From NCBI GenBank assembly GCA_963699545.1, contig CAVOUE010000003.1, forward strand, positions 640,001 to 704,000: a stretch of 64,000 bases of DNA, read 5' to 3'. The position numbers and the translations under genes were made by a program. Source of the stretch: Nitrospirota bacterium. Its GTDB lineage: Bacteria; Nitrospirota; Thermodesulfovibrionia; Thermodesulfovibrionales; UBA9159. Positions 1,346 through 53,635 of the stretch are shown in pieces. A model generated the notes under the pieces. That model worked only from the letters and a program-made list of their open reading frames with translations, searched no databases and had not been told where the DNA came from. The first letter of the stretch is position 1. Every line of letters begins with the position of its first letter.

Positions 1346-2853
1346 ATGCCCAGTGAGATCCTCATCAATGTTACCCGTGAAGAGATAAGAGTCGGATTGC
1401 TTGAAGGCGGTCAGGTGGTCGAGTTTTATGTGGAGAGGAAAAGGGATGCAAGCCTTGTGGGGAATATCTATAAGGGGAAGGTGGTAAAGATACTGCCGGG
1501 CATGCAGTCGGCGTTTGTGGACGTGGGCCTTGAAAAGGCTGCGTTCCTCTATGTTGCCGATATCATCACGGAGATGGAAGACTACGCTCCTTTCCTGGAG
1601 GAAGAGGACAAGAGCAATTCCATAGAGCTTGTTCCGAGAAGGGGCAGACAGGACCTCCCCATAGAGGAGCTTATACAGGACGGCCAGGAAGTGCTGGTAC
1701 AGGTTCTCCAAGGACCCCATGGGCAGCAAAGGCGCCAGGGTCACTTCCTATGTCACCATGCCGGGACGCTACCTTGTGCTTATGCCGAGCCTGGAGCATA
1801 TCGGCATATCAAGAAGAATATCGGATGAAACAGAGCGTGCCAGACTGCGCAGCATCGTGGAGGCGATCAAGCCCAAGGGGTATGGCCTCATCATAAGGAC
1901 CGCCAGTGAGGGGTGCACCGAGGAGGAACTCAAGAAAGACCAGGAGTTCCTGCTGCTGTTGTGGGAGAACATCCAGAAGAAACGCGACAGGATGGTGGCC
2001 CCCTGTTCTCCTATACAGCGACCTTGATCTCGCCTTCAGGAGCGTTCGCGACCTCATGAGCCAGGACGTGGAAAGGCTCGTGATCGATGCAGAGGAGGAG
2101 TACGAAAGGATCAAGGAATTTGTGAACACCTATTTCCCGAAGCTTCTCTCAAAGATAGAACTCTACGGGGAGGGGGAACCTATTTTCGAGGCCTTCGGAG
2201 TGGAAGTCGATATCTCGCGGGCTCTCGGGAGAAAGGTCTGGCTGAAGTCGGGCGGATACATCGTCATCGACCAGACAGAGGCGATGACGGTGATCGACGT
2301 CAACACGGGAAAGTTCGTGGGAAAAGAAGACCTCGAAGATACCATCTTCAAGACGAACCTGGAGGCGGTGAAGGAGATCGCATACCAGATAAGGCTGAGA
2401 AACCTGGGGGGCATCATCATCATCGACTTCATCGATATGGAGAGACTGGAGAACAGGGAAAAGGTTTTTAATGCATTCCTGGAGGCGATGAAGAGGGATA
2501 GGGCGAAGAATACCATACTCCATATCTCCGAACTCGGTCTCATCCAGATGACGCGGAAGAGGGTGAGGGAGAGCCTCGGGAGAGTGCTCTGTGAACCGTG
2601 CTCCTATTGCGAAGGCAAGGGATTTGTGAAGTCCCCCCGGACCCTGTGTTATGAAATATTCAGGAAGATCTCGAAGCTTGCGAGACACGGCGGAGAAAAG
2701 ATCATCGTCACTGCCCATCCCCAGGTGGCTGAACTCCTGTCGGATGAGGAGAGGACAAGTCTTGAGGACATAGAGAACATATACGGAGTAAAGGTCATCG
2801 TCAGAGAAGACAGCAAGCTCCATCAGGAAAATTATGAAGTGGTGAAGCTGTGA
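1346..2853 (+). CDS. rng: Ribonuclease G (Rne/Rng family), two apparent frameshifts near 1710 and 2000
   Basis: Three overlapping ORFs join into one RNase E/G: GNIYKGKV..LPGMQSAFVD, KGARVT..GRYLVLMP, LKSGGYIVIDQTEAMTVIDVNTG, CxxCxG zinc link. Confidence 0.92.
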
Positions 2854-3680
2854 ACACCGGATGCCCCCCAGCGCCGAAACTCACCCTCCTCACCGACATC
2901 CTTAAGGAAATGCAGAGCGCCGTTGTCGCCTATTCGGGCGGTGTTGACAGCACCTTTCTCCTCAAGGCCGCAGCGCTGTCGGGCATAAGGACCCTCGCGG
3001 TGACGGGGGTTTCTCCTACCATGCCCGAGCAGGATTTCCTTGACGCCGGTGAAGTTGCCCAACTGGTGGGTATTCCTCACCGTGTGATTAAGACAGCGGA
3101 AGTTGACAGCGATGATTTCAGAAAGAACCCCCCTGACAGATGTTACTACTGCAAGAGCGAGCTCTTCGGGAGACTCAAAGGTATCGCCGAATCAGAAGGC
3201 TACCGGCACGTCGTCGACGGAAGCAATCTTGATGACCTTGATGACTGGAGACCCGGGAGGCGGGCTGCTTCGGAATATGACGTGAGAAGTCCCCTGATAG
3301 AGGCGGGATTAAGGAAGGAGGACATACGCTCTCTTTCCCGGGAGCTGGACCTCCCCACGTGGAACAAGCCGTCCTCGCCGTGCCTTTCTTCAAGGTTCCC
3401 TTATGGAGAACCCATAACCCTTGGTGCGCTGAAACGGGTGGGGGCGGCCGAGAAATTCCTGCTGTCCCTTGGTTTTAGGGAGCTCAGGGTAAGGCATCAT
3501 GGCGATACCGCACGGATCGAGCTCAGGGAAGAGGATATCTCAGAAATGCTCAAACCGGATATCAGGAGGCTCGTCACGGAAAAGCTCAGGGCCCTGGGGT
3601 ATACGTTCATCACCCTTGACCTCGAGGGGTTCAGAAGCGGAAAGATGAATATTCTGAAGACCGGCCTTAATGTTAAATGA
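2850..3680 (+). CDS. larE: ATP-dependent sacrificial sulfur transferase LarE
   Basis: PP-loop SGGVDS, RCYYCK, DDWRPG, SSPCLSSRFPYG, RVRHHG motifs. Confidence 0.9.
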   Translation: MNTGCPPAPKLTLLTDILKEMQSAVVAYSGGVDSTFLLKAAALSGIRTLAVTGVSPTMPEQDFLDAGEVAQLVGIPHRVIKTAEVDSDDFRKNPPDRCYYCKSELFGRLKGIAESEGYRHVVDGSNLDDLDDWRPGRRAASEYDVRSPLIEAGLRKEDIRSLSRELDLPTWNKPSSPCLSSRFPYGEPITLGALKRVGAAEKFLLSLGFRELRVRHHGDTARIELREEDISEMLKPDIRRLVTEKLRALGYTFITLDLEGFRSGKMNILKTGLNVK

Positions 3681-3894
3681 AGGATACGTCAGAAGGATTG
3701 AAGAGTCCAGCCAGAAAGTAGCACTGCGCGGAGCGCTTTCACAATTTTACTTTCAGCCACAAAGTCGCATTTCTGGATGGGTTGAATATCTCACGATTTA
3801 CAGGTAAAAGATATATTTCTGAACGTATTTCAGTCTCCACAAATAACTCTTTCCTTAACGGCCCATAATCCTGTAAAATCTATTACATCGGGCC

Positions 3895-4326
3895 ATGTCG
3901 AAAACATCTCCAAAGAACGGCAACCGGGATATCTCCTCAATCATGAGAAAAGTGCGCTCCACCGATACGTCGCCAGAGTTAGCCCTGCGCCGTGCGCTTG
4001 CCGAAAAGGGCCTGCATCTTAGTAAGAATGGCGCTGATGTTCTGCCGGGGAAACCCGATATTGTGTTGCCTGGAGAGCGCATCGCCATTTTTGTCGACGG
4101 GGATTTCTGGCATGGAGGCCAATGGAGGAAAAGAAGACTTGCCTCTTTGGAGAAGCAGTTTGAAGAAACGCCCCAAAAGGATTATTGGGTGACCAAAATC
4201 AGGCGTAATGTGAACAGGGATTTTGGCAATACGAAAAAGCTCCTCGACGAGGGCTGGAGAGTAATCCGCTTTTGGGAGAGTCAGATCGGGAAGGATTTGG
4301 AGAACTTGCGTCAGGATCACCCTTGA
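3895..4326 (+). CDS. vsr: Very short patch repair endonuclease, probably fused to the downstream methyltransferase
   Basis: MxxVRSxDTxPELALRRAL, LPGKPDIV, FVDGDFWHG, YWxxKIxRNxxRD, GWRVIRFWE. Confidence 0.9.
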   Translation: MSKTSPKNGNRDISSIMRKVRSTDTSPELALRRALAEKGLHLSKNGADVLPGKPDIVLPGERIAIFVDGDFWHGGQWRKRRLASLEKQFEETPQKDYWVTKIRRNVNRDFGNTKKLLDEGWRVIRFWESQIGKDLENLRQDHP

Positions 4327-4342
4327 AGCCTCAAAGAAGAAA

Positions 4343-5542
4343 TTGAAATCGGATGTTTGCTCTATAGTTCCTAACAGGACCGTAGCGGAATTCTTTGCGG
4401 GCATTGGGCTGATGCGCGTAGGGTTAGAACGGAAAGGATGGACGGTCTTATTTGCGAATGACATAGACGCTCAAAAATGTGAGATGTACAGAGATCATTT
4501 CCCAGACGCCGACAATCATCTCGTATGCGGCGACATTCATCATCTGAAGGTCGAACGTATCCCTTCTGTCACGCTGGCTACTGCCTCATTCCCCTGCAAC
4601 GACTTGTCGCTCGCTGGGGCAAGAAAAGGTCTTCACGGTAAGGAGTCCTCAGCCTTTTGGGGGTTTATCGGCGCGCTTGAGAATATGAAGAACCGAAGAC
4701 CGCCAATCGTGCTTTTGGAGAATGTGACAGGGTTTCTTTCCTCTCATAAAGGGAATGATTTCAGGCAGGCATTACTCGCCTTGAATAGACTCGGTTATAC
4801 GACGGACGCGTTTATTTTGGACGCCGCCATGTTCGTGCCACAAAGCAGGCAACGGCTCTTCGTTGTCGGTATCCTTGAAGCCTGCATTCCCTCAAACGAG
4901 GTGAGGGAGCAACTGAGCTTTTATGAAAGTCCGGTCAGACCTCCGGCCCTGGCCGATTTTATTTTCCAAAAAACCGGGATAAATTGGAATATTAGAACAT
5001 TGCCAGCGCCGCCTACGAGGAAGATTTCTCTTACTGATATTCTCGATGATCCGGGTGAGACGTCACCCGAGTGGTGGAACGCTGAACGCGCCGAATATCT
5101 TTTGAATCAAATGAGCCCCCGACATCGGGAGATGGCCGAGCGGATGATCCGTGGAAGGCGATATTCATATGGAACCGTCTTCAGGCGTATTCGCAATGAC
5201 AGGTCAATGGCCGAGTTGCGGACAGACGGCGTTGCAGGATGTCTGCGGACACCTCGCGGAGGGAGCGGCAGACAGATACTCTTTAAAGCTGGCAAAGGGA
5301 AATATTTTGCCAGGCTTCTCAATCCCAGGGAGTGCGCCCGGTTGATGGGCGCCGATGACTTTATCATTAAGGCGCCGCTCAATCAGGCGCTGTTTGGTTT
5401 CGGCGACGCCGTCTGTGTGCCTGTTATCGAGTGGCTCGCGGAATACTACCTGAATCCAGTGGTAAACGAGCTCATGAAGGGAAGACCATTGACGCCTTAC
5501 GTTGTCGGTAGAGAACGGAGGCATAGTGAAAAAAACGCTTGA
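4343..5542 (+). CDS. DNA (cytosine-5)-methyltransferase
   Basis: Motif I FFAGIG, IV SFPCND, VI ENV, VIII QSRQRLF, IX RECARLMG, X GDAV. Confidence 0.95.
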   Translation: MKSDVCSIVPNRTVAEFFAGIGLMRVGLERKGWTVLFANDIDAQKCEMYRDHFPDADNHLVCGDIHHLKVERIPSVTLATASFPCNDLSLAGARKGLHGKESSAFWGFIGALENMKNRRPPIVLLENVTGFLSSHKGNDFRQALLALNRLGYTTDAFILDAAMFVPQSRQRLFVVGILEACIPSNEVREQLSFYESPVRPPALADFIFQKTGINWNIRTLPAPPTRKISLTDILDDPGETSPEWWNAERAEYLLNQMSPRHREMAERMIRGRRYSYGTVFRRIRNDRSMAELRTDGVAGCLRTPRGGSGRQILFKAGKGKYFARLLNPRECARLMGADDFIIKAPLNQALFGFGDAVCVPVIEWLAEYYLNPVVNELMKGRPLTPYVVGRERRHSEKNA

Positions 5543-6473
5543 GTTGTTTGAGGCCTGGTACAGTCATCTGCCGATTCATAAGGCAAGCGGCGGTCCTGCC
5601 AAAGGGACCATAGCAGCGGCCCTCGTAGTATTGGAACGATTAAGAGAAGATTATCGGCTTAAGATAGAAGCCCACACAGCGCAAGGCGGCGCACAGCTCA
5701 GCGGCGCGAGCGGGCAGGCTGTGAAAAAGATTCTTGCAAGATTTGGAGAAACAAGACCCTTTGCAAAAGAAGGAGGGCGTACAAATAGGGGAGGGCCGGG
5801 CGATATCAAGAAGATGCTTCAGGCCCTTAAGAAGGCAAATCTCGAAAAGCTTGCCGCTGAGAGGCGAAATGAAATCTTGAACGAGATGCAACGGTTTCTT
5901 GTCGGAAAGGTCGTTGAGTTTCATAATCGTGAACGCATAAAGATGGTATATGATCCGTCAAAGAGCACATGGCAAAATATTCAGGGGTTGTTATCAGCGG
6001 CCCGGGAAACCGGGAAAGAGGGACCAGTGGCCCAGCATCTCGTCGGGGCTAAACTCCAGTTGAGATTTCCGGATATTGCGGTCGGCAATGAATCCTACAG
6101 CACCGCAGATGAGCAGTTGGGCAGACCCGGCGACTTCTATATCGGTGACACGGCTTTCCACGTGACCGTCGCGCCGATGGGTCCGGTTTATGAAAAATGC
6201 AAGGATAACCTTGAAAATGGATATCGGGTCTATCTTTTAGTGCCGGAAAGGGCTGTGACGGGGGCCAGACAAAACGCTGAGCTTATGGTGCCAGGACGTA
6301 TCGCGGTAGAGTCCATCGAGTCTTTTGTTGGGCAGAACATTGAGGAGTTGTCATTTTTTACGCGGGACAAACTGAAGAATGGGTTCAGACGACTTCTTGA
6401 GACCTATAACGACCGCGTCGACGCTGCTGAGACCGATAAGTCGATGTTGGTTGAGATACCGAGGAATTTGTGA
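5526..6473 (+). CDS. DUF4928-like protein, putative restriction endonuclease partner
   Basis: GGAGG RBS then GTG at 5526; EGGRTNRG, GPVAQHLVGAKLQLRFP, TADxQxGRxGDF..GDTAFHVTVAP motifs recalled for DUF4928; overlaps the MTase stop. Confidence 0.7.
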   Translation: MKKTLELFEAWYSHLPIHKASGGPAKGTIAAALVVLERLREDYRLKIEAHTAQGGAQLSGASGQAVKKILARFGETRPFAKEGGRTNRGGPGDIKKMLQALKKANLEKLAAERRNEILNEMQRFLVGKVVEFHNRERIKMVYDPSKSTWQNIQGLLSAARETGKEGPVAQHLVGAKLQLRFPDIAVGNESYSTADEQLGRPGDFYIGDTAFHVTVAPMGPVYEKCKDNLENGYRVYLLVPERAVTGARQNAELMVPGRIAVESIESFVGQNIEELSFFTRDKLKNGFRRLLETYNDRVDAAETDKSMLVEIPRNL

Positions 6474-6688
6474 GGGAGGAGAATCAATAACAACGCCTTG
6501 CCAATGAAAGAAGTGGTCCACTTTCTGTACGCAAGGAAATTAACTAGAGGAAATTAACTAGGGACACATCCCGTTTTCTCTCCCCAGCAGACTCTCAACG
6601 TTACTAAAGGAAATAGAAACACTTTGGACTTCCCCCGGTTTGATAGACAGATTTAAAGGTACAATTGGAAGCAACAGAGGAGGTGTCT

Positions 6689-6973
6689 ATGTCGAATCGG
6701 AAGTACACAGAGGAGTTCAAGGCTGAGGCAATCAAGCAGGTGACAGAGCGGGGCTACAAGGTCCAGGAAGTATGTGAGAGGTTGGGGATATCGAGCAAGA
6801 GCCTGTACCTGTGGCTGCGATTAGCGAGGAAGAGTAATGGCAAGCACGGTCAGGGCAGCGACAATGAGCTGAAACAGGAGATCGTGCGGCTGAAGTCGGA
6901 GCTAAAGCGAGTCGAAGAGGAGCGAGACATACTAAAAAAGGCCGCCGCGTACTTTGCCAAGGCATCCCGGTAA
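6689..6973 (+). CDS. IS3 transposase OrfA (HTH)
   Basis: RKYTEEFKAEAIKQV...LGISxKSLYxW...EERDILKKAAAYF; A6G slippery site at 6934-6940. Confidence 0.92.
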   Translation: MSNRKYTEEFKAEAIKQVTERGYKVQEVCERLGISSKSLYLWLRLARKSNGKHGQGSDNELKQEIVRLKSELKRVEEERDILKKAAAYFAKASR

Positions 6974-48003: not shown

Positions 48004-48297
48004 TTAAACTGCAATAGCCTCAACCAGTTTCCAGTCATCAGACCTATGTGATGCCTGCCATAGATCGTAATTCCGCTGCATGTTAAGCCAAAGTTCAGGG
48101 GTTGTCTTAAACGCCTTTGATAAACGAAGAGCCATGTCCGGAGTTATAGAAGCATGTTCATTTACAATCTCGGACAAAGTCTTTCTTGACACGCCGAGAA
48201 CTACTGCAAGTCCGGAAACCGTCAGGGACAGGGGCTCCATGTAATGCCTTCTCAAAATGCCGCCCGGATGCGTCGGGCGCCTCAGCCTTTTTCTCAT
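48004..48297 (-). CDS. higA: HigA antitoxin
   Basis: PTHPGxIL, LGVSRKTLS, ITPDMALRL, TPELWLNMQ. Confidence 0.95.
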   Translation of the reverse strand: MRKRLRRPTHPGGILRRHYMEPLSLTVSGLAVVLGVSRKTLSEIVNEHASITPDMALRLSKAFKTTPELWLNMQRNYDLWQASHRSDDWKLVEAIAV

Positions 48298-48309
48298 GTC
48301 TTCACCTCT

Positions 48310-48588
48310 CTAATGGTAATCGATATATTCGACGTCATATGCGTTGCCTTCTTCAAATCTAAAGACAACCCGCCAATTTCCTGAAACTTTTACGGCCCAG
48401 CGACCTTTCATCTTGCCTTTAAGTTGATGAAGATCAGATCCCGGGAATTTCATGTCTTTGATGTCTTCCGCAGCATCAAGCCTGTCGAGAATATCCGCCA
48501 GCTTTTGAGCATGAATCGCCTGGATACCCTTTTTTATCTCGTCATAAAAGAAGTCTTCCAGTCCCTTATGAGAGAAGGACTTAATCAT
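48310..48588 (-). CDS. higB: HigB toxin (RelE superfamily)
   Basis: MIKSFxHKGL, LHQLKG, WAVKVSGNWRVVFRF, YIDYH. Confidence 0.95.
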   Translation of the reverse strand: MIKSFSHKGLEDFFYDEIKKGIQAIHAQKLADILDRLDAAEDIKDMKFPGSDLHQLKGKMKGRWAVKVSGNWRVVFRFEEGNAYDVEYIDYH

Positions 48589-48599
48589 TTATGTATTAA

Positions 48600-48626
48600 T
48601 GTAACCCGCAGGGTTACAAATGTCAA
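48600..48626 (-). promoter_or_regulatory. higBA promoter with palindromic operator
   Basis: TTGACA-N17-TACATT on the minus strand; TGTAACCC-N3-GGGTTACA palindrome at 48600-48618. Confidence 0.75.
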
Positions 48627-49045
48627 GAAGAAAAAGGTTAAACGCTCAACCTTTCCGATGTTCCATTTGAAGTAGCCGCAGGTCTTAGCCTTTATTTCAA
48701 CCCGAATTATGTTCATTCAAATACATCCAGTACACTGCACTATTTCGATCACAGGCACTCACGGTATTATGGTGAAATGACAGGGGGGTCGGGCATATTC
48801 CCCATTATATATGCGGAGAAAGAAAACATCTGATAGCTGTAAGTTTACGGTCTTCACTTCCTATCCCCACAAACTCGCTCTGGACGCCTTTTAGAAATCC
48901 TTACCTTTATTAATCATGGATAATTGCAATGAAAGGCATAAAAATTGCCTATATTTCAAGTGCTTTTCCTATAAGCTGGCTCATGAATAAGGAATGGCAA
49001 ACTAAATTCGTCGCTATATTTCATGAATAAAGGGGAAAGAATGTT

Positions 49046-49702
49046 ATGAAAAGGATAGGCATTTTATTAAGCGCCTTGATCATGGTGTTTGGGCTATCTG
49101 TCTCTGCGTATGCAACGCTCCAGGACATGGGAGATGGGACGATTTATGACACTACCACGCAGTTAAGTTGGCTGAAGAATGCCAATACGGCAGGGTTGAT
49201 GAATTGGAGTTCAGCCGTTGCCTGGGCAGCAGGTTTAAACAGTGGCAGTGGCTTTGCGGGGTTAACAGGCTGGCGGCTTCCGAATACCTCTCAGCCGGAT
49301 ACGAATTGCAGTAATAATTTTGACCCCGGTGGAGGCTTTCAATATTCTGGATATAGTTGCACCGGTAGTGAAATGGGATATTTGTACTACGTTTCACTGG
49401 GCAATGCGGCTGGCGGTCCATTGACCAACACAGGCCCATTTACAGACTTGCAGGCCCCCAACTACTGGTCAGGTACCGCGTATGCGCCGGATCCGACTGT
49501 CAACGCATGGTCCTTCGGTTTCAACGATGGCGTCCAGGGCATCGGCGATCAGAGCGGTGGCTACTACGCCTGGGCAGTGCGTCCCGGGGCAAGAGGATCA
49601 CAAGCATCGCCTGTACCGGCAAGTGGGACGGTTGGCCTGATCGGCCTCGGACTGGCAGGGCTGGTAATAGTCGGGATGAGGCTTAGGAAGGCAACCAGGT
49701 AA
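49046..49702 (+). CDS. DUF1566 (Lcl-type) surface protein with C-terminal sorting signal; DGR target gene
   Basis: Signal peptide; GDGTIYD...LSWLK, GWRLP, YWSGT...AW.F.F...YAWAVRPG; tail PVPASG + TM helix + RLRK. Confidence 0.9.
   Translation: MKRIGILLSALIMVFGLSVSAYATLQDMGDGTIYDTTTQLSWLKNANTAGLMNWSSAVAWAAGLNSGSGFAGLTGWRLPNTSQPDTNCSNNFDPGGGFQYSGYSCTGSEMGYLYYVSLGNAAGGPLTNTGPFTDLQAPNYWSGTAYAPDPTVNAWSFGFNDGVQGIGDQSGGYYAWAVRPGARGSQASPVPASGTVGLIGLGLAGLVIVGMRLRKATR
49449..49587 (+). repeat. DGR variable repeat (VR)
   Basis: Manual alignment to 50370-50505: about 27 substitutions at template adenines, about 7 at other bases, one 3-nt indel. Confidence 0.9.
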
Positions 49703-49771
49703 CGATACGATAGCGTCCCGGACATGGGCGCTTTGGTGATTTGGATTATTTGGTAATTTGTTTTTTGGGGT

Positions 49772-49791
49772 GCAGGGGGAATTCCCCCTGC
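49772..49791. other. GC-rich perfect palindrome downstream of the DGR target (candidate homing hairpin)
   Basis: GCAGGGGGAATTCCCCCTGC. Confidence 0.65.
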
Positions 49792-49827
49792 CTTCGCGTA
49801 ATTTTTTAAAAGGGTTGAGCATCAGCA

Positions 49828-50232
49828 ATGGCCAGGTATGAACATTTGCCGATCGACAAGAAGGCCATGGATGTGGCGGTCCACTTCGAAAAGGTGGTTG
49901 CCGGGTTCAGCCGGTATCACAAATACACCCTGGGCACAGAGCTCCGCAACAAGAGCAGGGATATTCTAGGTCTCATAGTGAAGGCAAACTCCTCTTCTGA
50001 TAAACTGCCTCATCTTCTTGAATTGCGCGAGAAGGTCGAGGAGCTTATAATCCTGATTCGCTTATGCAAGGAGGTGAAGGCATTTAAGAGCTTTGCGGCT
50101 TTTCAGTTTGCCGTCGAAGAGGTAATCTCAGTAAGCAGACAGAACGAGGGATGGCTTAAGAGTGCTGGAACAACAAAAAGGGGGCCGGAATCACCTAAAG
50201 GAAATGAGCGAGATCATTCTTCCTTCAGGTGA
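49828..50232 (+). CDS. avd: Avd-like four-helix-bundle accessory protein
   Basis: LPI.KKA.D, F.R.HKYTLG.ELR, ...IRL...SRQ.EGW; located between VR and TR. Confidence 0.8.
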   Translation: MARYEHLPIDKKAMDVAVHFEKVVAGFSRYHKYTLGTELRNKSRDILGLIVKANSSSDKLPHLLELREKVEELIILIRLCKEVKAFKSFAAFQFAVEEVISVSRQNEGWLKSAGTTKRGPESPKGNERDHSSFR

Positions 50233-50369
50233 GCGTGCCGAGATCGATCATTGTGCGTCTGTCCCGCTTGCGGCTGATGCAAGCATGACTATACAGGACG
50301 GGATACCGTTTGGCGGATTCCCGCCCGGTGGGGCGGAGGAAAAGCTCTGCCAGAAGTGGGCAGACAATA

Positions 50370-50505
50370 TGCAGGCCAACAACTACTGGTCAGGCACTGA
50401 GTATGCGCCAAATACAACAAACGCGTGGAACTTCAACTTCAACAATGGCAACCAGAACAACAACAATAAGGACACCAACAACTACGCCTGGGCAGTGCGT
50501 CCCGG
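50370..50505 (+). repeat. DGR template repeat (TR)
   Basis: AAC/AAT-codon-rich copy of the VR (NNYWSGTEYAPNTTNAWNFNFNNGNQNNNNKDTNNYAWAVRPG). Confidence 0.92.
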
Positions 50506-50628
50506 CGCAAGATCACAATCACAAGCATCGCCTGTACCGGCAAGTGGGACGGTTGGCCTGATAGTAATGGGACTGGCAGGGCTTGGGGTAATTATCTATT
50601 CGAGGAAGAAAAGAAGCCTGAATCAAGA

Positions 50629-51183
50629 ATGTCAGAGATAGCGGAGTCAAACAATGACCAGAAAGGAGCGGTCTCGGGAAATACGCAATTCCTGAGGACG
50701 GCCCTCCTGTTTTGTTCTGTAGTTGTCCTTCTTGACCTCTTAGTCTGGTATCTCGGAAGAAAAGAATATCTGGCCTTTCTCGACATCATTACCTCATGGG
50801 TTGTTGCAAACCTCATCCAGTTCTCCGGTCTTCAGGTAATCAGAGACAGCAATACAATTTACCTTGCGCACAGCGAATGGGTGGTCACCACTGAATGCAC
50901 CGCAATTTTCATCATGCTAATCTTCACATCCTTTATCCTGGTGTACCCCTCTTCCGTTAAGGCAAAGGGCCTCGCGCTTCTCACAGGAATACCCTTCATC
51001 TTCGGGGCTAATATACTGAGGCTTTTTATGATGGCGTGGATAGATAAACTCAGGCCTCAGTATACAGAGTATTTTCACCAGTACATCTGGCAGGTGGTCT
51101 TCATCGTGATGGTCATTTTCATGTGGCTCTTGTGGATTGACAAGGTAGTGAACCGTGAAACCAGGGTATCTCTTCCTTCTTAA
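50629..51183 (+). CDS. Exosortase/archaeosortase-family protein (XrtH-like)
   Basis: Multi-TM protein with Cys-Arg-His triad: VTTECTA, NILRL, FHQYIWQ. Confidence 0.85.
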   Translation: MSEIAESNNDQKGAVSGNTQFLRTALLFCSVVVLLDLLVWYLGRKEYLAFLDIITSWVVANLIQFSGLQVIRDSNTIYLAHSEWVVTTECTAIFIMLIFTSFILVYPSSVKAKGLALLTGIPFIFGANILRLFMMAWIDKLRPQYTEYFHQYIWQVVFIVMVIFMWLLWIDKVVNRETRVSLPS

Positions 51184-51649
51184 ATTCCTGGGATATTCCC
51201 TGGTCCTGTTTGCTTTCGGGCATCAACTGCTGCACGGGTATGCAGCGTTACTGAGGGAGGGAATGGACCTGCTGAACCCAGATTACCATGTTCCAACCGT
51301 ATTGAAGATTTTCTCTACGGCTCCTCAATGACGATAATCGCATTCATTGCCCTTGTGCTTGCGACACCAAGGATCTCCGGCAAAAAAAAAGACAGGTGTT
51401 ATTGGTATCGGTCTTATAGCGTTCTTCCTCACCGACTGGCTGTTTATTCAGTACGTGATTTTCCCGACAGGACAACCACCGGCAAATGAAGACTCTCCAG
51501 CCTTTGAGATGTACCTGTGCGCTAAATGGATCTTGCCGTTCCTCATGTGGATAATTCCATGCTATCCGTTTCTCGGACATTTTTTTGCAACCACCAAGAA
51601 GGTTCCTGAGGATGCGATTACGGACTGCCAGAGCCGCAACGATTCTTAG
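51155..51649 (+). CDS. Exosortase-associated membrane protein, frameshifted
   Basis: GTG start overlapping the exosortase; hydrophobic segments (FIALVLATP, WILPFLMW) spread across frames. Confidence 0.6.
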
Positions 51650-52156
51650 TTTGTATCGATAATCTTCGTCTTTCTGACCAATTGATTCTGTGTAGTAGCG
51701 GGGGAAGCTAATACGGGGAAACCTTTCAGTGTAAGAAGGGCATCCGCGTGTGTAGTGCGGTCGTTACGGTAAAAGTTTCTCCACGAACTCTTGATTGACC
51801 ACGTCGGTACTCAACATTTGTTTCCGAAAGAATCTCTCACCTGTGGTAGAAAAGCGACAGTGTTAATAACAGGAAGTAGTCTTGCCTCTCATCTCCACCG
51901 ACTAACAACCGTGGTTCAATTAATTGCAACAATGAAGATTTCCGAGAGAAGTCTGCGGTAATAATGAGTTCGGCGGCTTAGCCGCTGAAAGATTGGTTGT
52001 GGGACCATTTTCCTATTCTCTGTTACTTATTAAGTTGTCTAAATTGTCAACATTCCATATTTGCCAGGTCTCCAAAATAGCATTCCGGAAGTTTGATAAG
52101 AAGAGAGAATTTCACTCTTTCTCATGCCTGTGTTGAGTAAGGACTTCCGACGTTTT

Positions 52157-53635
52157 TTACGTATACGCATAATCATTATACGCCAGCATTTGCAGGATCT
52201 TTGTAATTCTGTAACGCTTGCTAAAGATATTGGGCATTACTTTGATGATGAAAACAGATCGTTCCCAGTTGAGAGAAAGAAGCAGGCTGGCCATACGGAG
52301 CGCAAAAAGCAGACGATAGTGGAACTTTATAGGGTCAGCTTCATTTTGCTGAAGCCAGAAGCCCAGATCCCCGAAATATCTTAGCCTCCGATAGATCGAC
52401 TCAAAAGAGTAGATGCTCTTGTTCACCTTTTCGAATCCCGCCAGGAGCTCTTCGGGAGTCAGATTCGCCGGCTTGAAGACGACATTCTTTGTGTCATACT
52501 TACTCCAGTCTTTATGAATAATGCGTCTTTCCTCTTCAAGCCGTTTAAAGAGCTTGGTCCCCGGAAACGGGGTGAGAATGTTGATGATAGGCTCCATTAT
52601 ATGGGCCTCATCGATAAAGGCGATCAATTCATCAAAGGAGTCCCGCGTGTCGAAGTCATAACCCAAGATAAATGATCCGAGGATTAGCAGGCCGTGTGAA
52701 TGTATTTTTTCGATCGCCTCCAGATAGTTGTGCTTCATATTAACGTTCTTAGACATCGCCGACAAATTCTTTTCTGAAATGGATTCAAAGCCGATAAAAA
52801 CAGAACCGCAGCCGGCCTCTTTCATCAGTTTCATCAGATCCTCATGCCGGGAAAGATTAATTGATGCCTGACAGCCCCATTTGATATTCAGCGGTTTCAA
52901 TGCAGCAAACAACTTGCGGGCATAAGGTATGTCCGCGATGATATTATCATCAGCGAAGAATATCGCTTTCCCCTTGTTTTTATAGCGGCCGCTTGCGAGG
53001 TTCAGGGAATTGATTTCCTCTATGACCCTCTCGACCGGTTTATGCCTGATCGTCTGCCCATCAAAAGCGTGCACGGAACAGAATTCGCAATGAAAGGGAC
53101 AGCCTTTCGTAGTCTGCACGAAATCATTGATATATTTCGTACTATCGAGTTGTGACCTGTCCGGAGGCTGAGCGGCAGCTAAATCTGCAAGCCCATCAGC
53201 CTTATAAGTCCTCTTTAGGGCGCCTCGTTGGGCGTCCTCGACGAGTTTCAGCCAAACCTTCTCAGCCTCACCGATTACAACGGCATCGCAGTAGAGGATC
53301 GCCTCTTCCGGGCACATGGAAGGGTGTATTCCTCCCAACACCGTCCTGGCCCCGCCCTTCCGAAAAGTTTCCGATATCTCATAGGCCCTCTTGGCATGCA
53401 TTGTCCTCACGCTTATGCCGACCAAGTCCGGTTTCCACCCGTAATCAATATCTTCTATGTTTTCGTCGAAAACCCTTAGGGTGTGTCCATGAGGCGTTAA
53501 AGAAATCAGGGCAGGTATTGAAAGCATATAGGAGTAATATTTTCTTGAGCACAGGAATTTGGAAAAGAATTTGTAATCGTAATAACTCTTTTCTTTTTCA
53601 GAGAAATTCTTGGGCATAACAAATGCTATTTTCAC
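52157..53635 (-). CDS. B12-binding radical SAM protein
   Basis: VLGGIHPS, GEAE, TKGCPFHCEFC, DDN, GFES, TPFPGT. Confidence 0.92.
   Translation of the reverse strand: MKIAFVMPKNFSEKEKSYYDYKFFSKFLCSRKYYSYMLSIPALISLTPHGHTLRVFDENIEDIDYGWKPDLVGISVRTMHAKRAYEISETFRKGGARTVLGGIHPSMCPEEAILYCDAVVIGEAEKVWLKLVEDAQRGALKRTYKADGLADLAAAQPPDRSQLDSTKYINDFVQTTKGCPFHCEFCSVHAFDGQTIRHKPVERVIEEINSLNLASGRYKNKGKAIFFADDNIIADIPYARKLFAALKPLNIKWGCQASINLSRHEDLMKLMKEAGCGSVFIGFESISEKNLSAMSKNVNMKHNYLEAIEKIHSHGLLILGSFILGYDFDTRDSFDELIAFIDEAHIMEPIINILTPFPGTKLFKRLEEERRIIHKDWSKYDTKNVVFKPANLTPEELLAGFEKVNKSIYSFESIYRRLRYFGDLGFWLQQNEADPIKFHYRLLFALRMASLLLSLNWERSVFIIKVMPNIFSKRYRITKILQMLAYNDYAYT

Follow-up and report, generated by a model that had tools for sequence, protein, structure and literature searches.

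A 64,000-nt stretch of a Nitrospirota genome assembly (the window, G000:C3:640001-704000) holds the components of a diversity-generating retroelement (DGR) immediately upstream of a small exosortase gene and its membrane partner, and no reverse transcriptase (RT) for them was detected anywhere in the assembly. We consider it probable that this locus is a DGR remnant joined to a dedicated exosortase module, its RT having been lost by recombination; in itself, the link between lectin-like proteins written by a DGR and a small exosortase dedicated to them is real. The window lies on a 903-kb contig of the source assembly (G000; 3.04 Mb in 13 contigs, 86.9% complete, 5.1% contamination). Below, C-numbers denote contigs of G000 and L-numbers loci in other genomes or metagenomes. 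The gene order, all on the plus strand, is target T1, avd, spacer, template repeat (TR), a relic sorting tail in frame with the TR, xrt1 and partner1, with the following coordinates in the window (TM, transmembrane):

49046..49702, plus strand: T1, DGR target gene, 218 aa, with Sec-type signal peptide, Lcl_C/DUF1566 domain, C-terminal variable repeat (VR) and sorting tail
49449..49587, plus strand: VR1, the variable repeat of T1, from the alignment to the TR
49588..49702, plus strand: sorting tail of T1 (GARGSQASPVPASGTVGLIGLGLAGLVIVGMRLRKATR), consisting of motif, TM helix and basic end, from the translation
49828..50232, plus strand: avd, intact gene for a DGR accessory four-helix-bundle protein, 134 aa, from profile, fold and homologue evidence
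50233..50369, plus strand: avd-TR spacer, 137 nt, without homology to either target locus (T1, or T2 on contig C5)
50370..50505, plus strand: TR, rich in Asn codons, 48 A in 136 nt
50506..50641, plus strand: relic sorting tail in frame with the TR, first 57 nt T1-like, remainder T2-like into the exosortase start
50629..51183, plus strand: xrt1, gene for a small exosortase-family protein, 184 aa, Cys90/Arg131/His150, from Exosortase_EpsH and TIGR04178
51155..51649, plus strand: partner1, membrane protein gene, overlapping xrt1 and split, from alignment to its intact 154-aa paralogue on C5

The relationship between VR1 and the TR carries the assignment to the DGRs. A first-pass annotation, made from the sequence alone, had paired 49449-49587 with 50370-50505 and estimated that about 27 of 34 substitutions fall at template adenines; formal alignment returned exactly 34 mismatches with 27 at TR adenines, and the enrichment was upheld when put to a Fisher test (one-sided p = 1.2e-9). 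Adenine changes of the variable repeats relative to the TR fall on codon positions 1 and 2; the count for VR1 over positions 1/2/3 is 14/10/3, the pattern expected of AAC codons. The sole indel in the alignment is a 3-nt insertion in VR1. As to the target itself, the earlier call of a DUF1566 gene stands on a Pfam Lcl_C/DUF1566 match at E 1.8e-18 (67.3 bits against a cut-off of 34.9), and VR1 spans the last 50 positions of this domain. The N terminus of T1 looks like a Sec-type signal peptide. Its C terminus (...YYAWAVRPGARGSQASPVPASGTVGLIGLGLAGLVIVGMRLRKATR) runs from PVPASGT through a hydrophobic helix to RLRKATR, which is the motif-TM-basic tail originally described, and scores below threshold with the PEP-CTERM models (PF07589 / TIGR02595; 13.8 bits against a cut-off of 20.7 for T1, 13.8 against 16 for the relic tail). 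The predicted structure of T1 (predicted local distance difference test, pLDDT, 48.8) was unusable for a fold search, with a C-terminal helix at 192-217 present in this poor model, and a PDB sequence search with T1 found no match.

Between VR1 and the TR lies the open reading frame (ORF) at 49828, for which an Avd-like product had been proposed. This identity is borne out by profiles, fold and homology. The protein is full length against the Pfam bAvd profile (E 8.9e-10, 39.5 bits, just below the cut-off of 40) and also matches NCBIfam DivGenRetAVD (E 6.7e-11, 42.4 bits, below the cut-off of 80). Its model is a four-helix bundle (pLDDT 86.9) that matches Bordetella phage Avd (4dwl; TM-score 0.74, root-mean-square deviation 1.6 Å) as well as the Avd chains of the DGR ribonucleoprotein 8ub7, and the sequence is 61% identical to the avd product of L010, a canonical target-avd-TR-RT cassette in a genome of the same family. 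A PDB sequence search with Avd gave noise only. The one other Avd-like match in G000, a weak one on contig C7, was set aside as an ordinary four-helix-bundle protein.

The first-pass annotation had also suggested searching the whole genome for further VR copies with the TR as query. Against the whole of the G000 DNA, this query returned nothing above noise besides VR1 and a single second copy, VR2, on contig C5 (identity to the TR, 77% for VR1 and 74% for VR2). The C5 locus (G000:C5:276044-277654, minus strand) consists of a second target, T2 (200 aa, a secreted DUF1566 protein), a second exosortase gene, xrt2, and an intact partner gene, partner2, of 154 aa; neither avd nor a TR is present. 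VR2 shows 32 mismatches to the TR, 24 of them at TR adenines (Fisher p 1.7e-7). Non-adenine mismatches number 7 in VR1 and 8 in VR2, and four such sites (50395, 50398, 50475 and 50476) differ from the TR in both repeats, which indicates a later change in the TR itself. The only other Lcl_C gene of G000, on contig C6, has no TR match; it is a 355-aa ORF (G000:C6:84088-85155) with a C-terminal Lcl_C domain, lacking signal peptide and tail.

The coordinates given for the TR at first pass are right, but the repeat does not stand alone: its ORF reads on in frame into a second sorting tail, as far as 50641 (...PVPASGTVGLIVMGLAGLGVIIYSRKKR). This relic tail is a mosaic. Its first part, 50506-50562, resembles the T1 tail, with a best local stretch of 45/45 identical positions preceded by three mismatches and a 3-nt indel, while the following 66 nt (50563-50628) resemble the T2 tail and the intergenic region behind it (46/52 identical). 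In a three-way alignment the relic lacks 12 nt of T2, the stop codon among them. The T2-like part is continuous with xrt1-partner1, a block that has its paralogue on C5 (xrt1 and partner1 85-87% identical to the C5 copy; xrt1 against xrt2, 83% in protein and 85% in DNA). Because the 3' half of the relic, xrt1 and partner1 are all paralogous to C5, the TR occupies the place of the 3' end, or VR, of a target gene. Since the TR is joined here to what remains of a target gene's 3' end, in the slot before the exosortase, the order target-avd-TR-exosortase, which the first-pass annotation did not know as a described DGR architecture, appears as a deletion derivative and is probably not a designed arrangement.

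The absence of an RT, noted before for the 64 kb of the window, extends to all 3.04 Mb of the assembly. Pfam RVT_1 (PF00078) gave 0 matches in G000 at E<=10, with control genomes matched in the same search. In tblastn, the DGR RT of the same-family locus L010 reached a best E of 0.52 against G000, leaving no trace of RT coding sequence. Finally, all 57,132 open frames of G000 with 30 aa or more were searched, unfiltered, with a hidden Markov model (HMM) of 15 Nitrospirota DGR RTs; the best E was 4.4, and this model matched a group II RT from outside its training set at 3.5e-49. Directly after the TR, where relatives have the 5' sequence of an RT, the window carries tail-coding DNA.

In a phylum sample of 401 genomes, 18 of 27 distinct avd loci have an RT within 1.5 kb of avd. 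When avd loci without a nearby RT were extended to 9-17 kb, all seven of seven were still RT-less, and avd was truncated or broken in five. Untyped RVT_1 matches occur in five genomes with RT-less avd loci. Six such loci from other Nitrospirota (L114, L115, L116, L118, L119 and L120) have avd beside DUF1566 genes with no RT over 9-17 kb, avd being truncated or split in five of the six. DGR decay thus seems common in Nitrospirota.

Turning to the enzyme, the protein encoded by xrt1 is a member of the exosortase family, with 47.1 bits against a cut-off of 25.7 for Exosortase_EpsH (PF09721) and 58.7 bits against 23 for the exo/archaeosortase signature TIGR04178. The Cys/Arg/His triad recognized at first pass in the exosortase after the target corresponds to C90, R131 and H150, which are invariant in an alignment of 27 homologues and which, from the exosortase family literature, we take to be catalytic. 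The protein falls below the cut-offs of all named subfamilies against which it was scored (ArtB, 68 vs 150; XrtX, 63.5 vs 170; XrtH, 50.2 vs 86; XrtF, 45.2 vs 90; XrtA, 24.1 vs 208). A protein search yielded 76 homologues at E <= 0.001. At the level of genome contigs, a single-sequence scan confirmed no relative and an alignment-based scan found 5 loci; in the phylum sample the family is rare, occurring in 4/401 genomes with G000 counted. G000 contains a third, different exosortase-family gene at C4:73654-74076.

The partner gene predicted earlier behind the exosortase is present and conserved, but its reading frame is interrupted. Relative to its C5 paralogue it has two indels, -1 near 51299 and +1 in an A-run near 51382, which give rise to an in-frame stop at 51329-51331. 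The partner protein belongs to a 4-TM family without a match to any Pfam or NCBIfam family. Of the 33 metagenome loci L024-L056, 31 have its gene behind the exosortase gene or overlapping with it, and the two exceptions end at a contig edge. That the partner might be a diverged exosortase was ruled out (hhalign probability 0.15%). A predicted complex of Xrt1 with its partner (score 0.05) gave no verdict and is counted neither for nor against an interaction. The partners of L014, L040 and L048 are extended at the C terminus, with a zinc-ribbon-like CPIC...H...H pattern; the extension is absent from the family of the window.

Among 25 loci, the gene just 5' of the exosortase encodes a tailed cargo in 19 and none in 6. 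The tail is of the form (P)VGY(S/N)PxWL-TM-basic in 15 and PVPA(S/T)..-TM-basic, the class found in G000 (class II), in 4; T1-type tails directly precede the exosortase in L025 and L027 too. An Lcl_C cargo is found at L016, L027, L028 and L036, the others being Kelch, NHL, CarboxypepD_reg or unassigned. A DGR origin and a cargo role for T1, both part of the first reading of the locus as a diversifying module displayed through its own exosortase, are supported; the enzyme's specificity for DGR targets is not, given the Kelch and NHL cargo. The family is not DGR-specific, yet it is repeatedly paired with DUF1566 proteins. Within G000, class-II tails occur three times only, in T1, the relic and T2, each 5' of one of the two exosortase copies, so the exosortase appears to be a dedicated, near one-to-one sorting system. 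At L013:5794-5994 we also came across a cargo of 66 aa in which a signal peptide is joined almost directly to a PVGYNPQWL-TM-basic tail, with no passenger domain.

If the exosortase were never linked to DGR targets elsewhere, the first-pass annotation argued, the proposed coupling would fall. An example of such a link is given by L016, a locus on a 478-kb contig of a Nitrospirota metagenome-assembled genome (MAG), where an intact DGR with a tailed target B has the order avd-targetA-TR-RT-targetB-xrt-partner:

2120-2533: avd
2535-3095: target A
3418-3555: TR
3490-5034: RT, RVT_1 match at 2.3e-17, with a MutS-domain-I-like end
5046-5855: target B, with Lcl_C and CarboxypepD_reg domains and a GYSPAWL-TM-basic tail
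5995-6522: exosortase
6494-6934: partner

VR-B of L016 differs from its TR at 23 positions, 23/23 at adenines, and the L016 exosortase is 53% identical to that of the window. L016 thus shows that a working-looking DGR can stand directly 5' of a tailed target and this exosortase family. It shares with the window the exosortase and partner families, a tailed DUF1566 target directly 5' of xrt and adjacent DGR parts; it differs in having an RT, adenine-only differences in VR-B, avd placed before target A, and a GYSPAWL tail that follows a CarboxypepD_reg domain. The C-terminal region of its RT has a MutS-domain-I-like match in Pfam (5e-05).

The VRs of exosortase-linked DUF1566 genes at three further loci were compared with the window TR, with mismatches at adenines in 25/34 (L036), 30/50 (L027) and 14/18 (L025). 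These patterns are consistent with DGR-written loops; a related TR would yield the same adenine pattern, so the comparison is support and not proof. An RT beside an exosortase at L044 was rejected as a DGR link, being of the group-II-intron type with no TR/VR. In a genome of the same family, L126 (G007:C98:15624-16835) contains a tandem pair of T1-like DUF1566 genes whose ends are of the VR type (...YYVWPVRPGER and ...YYVWAVRPGAR). Neither has a TM tail and there is no exosortase, so that tail and enzyme look like an add-on in some lineages.

Taken together, these data suggest the following history. An adenine-mutagenic RT would have rewritten the C-terminal ligand-binding loops of T1 and T2 from the TR, the two targets being predicted secreted, DUF1566 lectin-like proteins, each with a motif-TM-basic tail. 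Judging from sequence, the exosortase and its 4-TM partner most likely cleave the tail and anchor the protein on the cell surface. The ancestral layout may have been L016-like, TR-RT-tailed target-xrt-partner, from which the arrangement of the window can be derived by a single deletion running from the template unit to the 3' end of the tailed target. Its simplest origin would be homologous recombination of the TR unit with the tailed target downstream, at the latter's 3' end, an event that would delete the RT, the 5' part of that target and the RNA region that follows the TR. The first-pass annotation had allowed for a remote RT or for freezing after RT loss; these are the right options, and the evidence leans to loss, which for this genome we regard as rather likely. 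With the RT gone, VR1 and VR2 would be frozen products of past diversification. Signs of drift are the 7 and 8 non-adenine mismatches, the 3-nt length difference between VR1 and the TR, and the interrupted partner gene.

Several observations weigh against this reading. First, at 86.9% completeness and in 13 contigs, the assembly does not prove that the organism itself has no RT, which might be located in the portion not assembled or on a short contig that was left unbinned. Second, avd and the TR are intact, with every Asn codon kept, which is unexpected after long disuse. Third, the share of non-adenine mismatches (21-25%) overlaps that of RT-bearing relatives, namely 8/32 in L091, 4/22 in L107 and 3/18 in L010, with zero in L088, L094 and L016 VR-B, and is therefore no proof of inactivity; we dropped it as such. 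Fourth, the partner-gene indels lie in homopolymer contexts and are possibly sequencing errors. Finally, the 5' order of L016, with avd before target A, and its tail class differ from those of the window, which makes L016 a precedent and not an orthologue.

The first three of these points also favour the strongest alternative, that of a cassette which is still active: a phage, a plasmid or the ~13% of the genome missing from the assembly would encode an RT that acts in trans, together with the local Avd and TR RNA, and T1 and T2 would continue to be rewritten. A single TR already acts on targets at a distance, T1 and T2 being on different contigs. We nevertheless hold a trans-acting RT to be unlikely: no RT of any kind was detected in the 3.04 Mb, 18/27 avd loci of the phylum keep theirs within 1.5 kb, VR1 exceeds the TR in length by 3 nt, and the four shared non-adenine sites set both VRs apart from the present template. 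Moreover, tail-coding DNA has taken the place that the 5' region of the RT has in relatives, after the TR; in the Bordetella system, this is where the priming spacer RNA lies. Doubtful to much the same degree is a broader proposition, that exosortase-coupled DGRs are a recurring display route for hypervariable lectin-like proteins, with the tail placed behind the VR and the enzyme gene in one cassette with it as in L016, and that the intact avd-TR unit is used here by a trans-acting RT on two unlinked cargo genes. If true, this would be a split DGR with template and enzyme on different replicons.

An assembly artefact seems quite improbable. It would require that the real locus is T1-avd-TR-RT-target-xrt and that the assembler jumped between near-identical tails, leaving the RT on an unbinned short contig. 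There is indeed a 45-nt exact repeat between the T1 tail and the stretch after the TR, the RT is missing from all 13 contigs, and MAG binning commonly discards short contigs. Against this, a 903-kb contig in a 13-contig genome points to sequencing with long reads, for which a 45-nt repeat is no obstacle; the 12 nt missing from the relic, T2 stop codon included, are a genuine difference in sequence rather than a mere join; and RT-less avd loci recur in other genomes. Least probable, by a little, is a native satellite, a template-only cassette in which avd-TR formed in place by duplication of a target 3' end and, having at no time possessed an RT, borrows that of another DGR: the T1-like TR and following 57 nt look as if copied from T1 and no RT coding trace is left, but avd has its closest homologues in canonical avd-TR-RT cassettes, the continuity of the T2-like relic with xrt1 fits a truncated resident target gene better, and G000 has no detectable donor RT.

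A deletion remnant is the reading we prefer. With the prototype, the DGR of Bordetella phage BPP-1 (mtd VR - avd - TR - spacer - brt), the locus shares adenine-biased differences between TR and VR, a C-terminal VR and an Avd four-helix bundle; unlike BPP-1, the window has no RT, has tail-coding DNA after the TR, and has a target that extends past its VR into a sorting tail, with a second target on another contig. Legionella-type DUF1566/CLec2 DGRs resemble it in having a short DUF1566 target, a diversified surface-exposed C terminus and avd. DUF1566 VRs form target category 'd' in the classification given by Wu et al. 2018 (PMC5758913), with the surface lipoprotein LdtA of Legionella as the example. 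LdtA is described there as an outer-membrane-anchored lipoprotein, whereas the targets here have a C-terminal exosortase-type tail with the sorting enzyme next door. The accessory genes named in that paper are Avd, HRDC, MSL and CH1, and the word 'sortase' is absent from its main text. The MutS-domain-I-like end of the L016 RT recalls the MSL accessory gene of Legionella-type DGRs and looks like a fusion with it, MSL being a separate gene in the account of Wu et al. 2018. According to Roux et al. (bioRxiv 10.1101/2020.04.01.020958), cellular targets mostly have N-terminal TM or signal peptides. Against the mean of ~15 A-to-N and 1.5 non-A changes per pair quoted in Yan et al. 2019 (PMC6642488), the non-adenine counts of the window are high, which is not decisive.

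On the enzyme side, PEP-CTERM/exosortase and archaeosortase systems resemble the module in family signature, in the invariant Cys/Arg/His and in the tripartite motif-TM-basic cargo tail. At 184 aa, Xrt1 is short like the ArtB (VPXXXP-CTERM), XrtX and XrtH forms. Compared with the named exosortases, the family scores far below the subfamily cut-offs, its tail motifs are PVGY(S/N)PxWL or PVPA(S/T)G with a sub-threshold PEP-CTERM HMM score, an unnamed 4-TM partner gene is obligatory, and each enzyme has in essence a single cargo. A full-text literature search for DGRs combined with exosortase, PEP-CTERM or archaeosortase found no paper; supplementary tables could hold cases.

As for RNA and regulatory elements around the locus, DNA folding 3' of VR1 and of the TR gave no stable hairpin (z +1.3 and +1.4), the RNA elements of this DGR lineage being undefined. 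Promoter, terminator and inverted-repeat scans of 48600-52200 found nothing beyond shuffled controls, and Rfam gave no match to the same interval at E<=0.1. Between the T1 stop and avd, at 49772-49791, there is a perfect 20-nt palindrome in which AATT is flanked by GC-rich arms of 8 nt; it is a possible terminator or DGR target-side hairpin and was not among the elements reported by the scans. Just 5' of T1, on the minus strand at 48004-48588, is a pair of genes for a HigB-like toxin (Pfam 6.5e-24) and a helix-turn-helix antitoxin. This 730-nt HigBA cassette is 85-91% identical in G001, G003 and G015 with differing flanks on both sides, and it therefore behaves as a mobile cassette. Synteny with G001, a genome of the same genus, is limited to HigBA and is uninformative on the DGR-exosortase island. 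On the other side, 3' of the partner gene, the intergenic stretch at about 51774-52000 matches, at 76-89%, three other places in G000 (on C12, C3 and C9) as well as places in five genomes of the same family, and is a short dispersed repeat without an Rfam match.

DGR surveys start from the RT and are thus blind to RT-less remnants such as the one proposed here. The locus would illustrate one way in which a DGR can die: the template unit recombines with a target at its 3' end, and the rewritten genes remain intact. In addition, the small exosortase, its unnamed partner and the two tail motifs make up a compact cargo/enzyme system outside the named NCBIfam subfamily models tested. At this locus, hypervariable ligand-binding loops are joined to a dedicated C-terminal sorting enzyme that would fix them at the cell surface.

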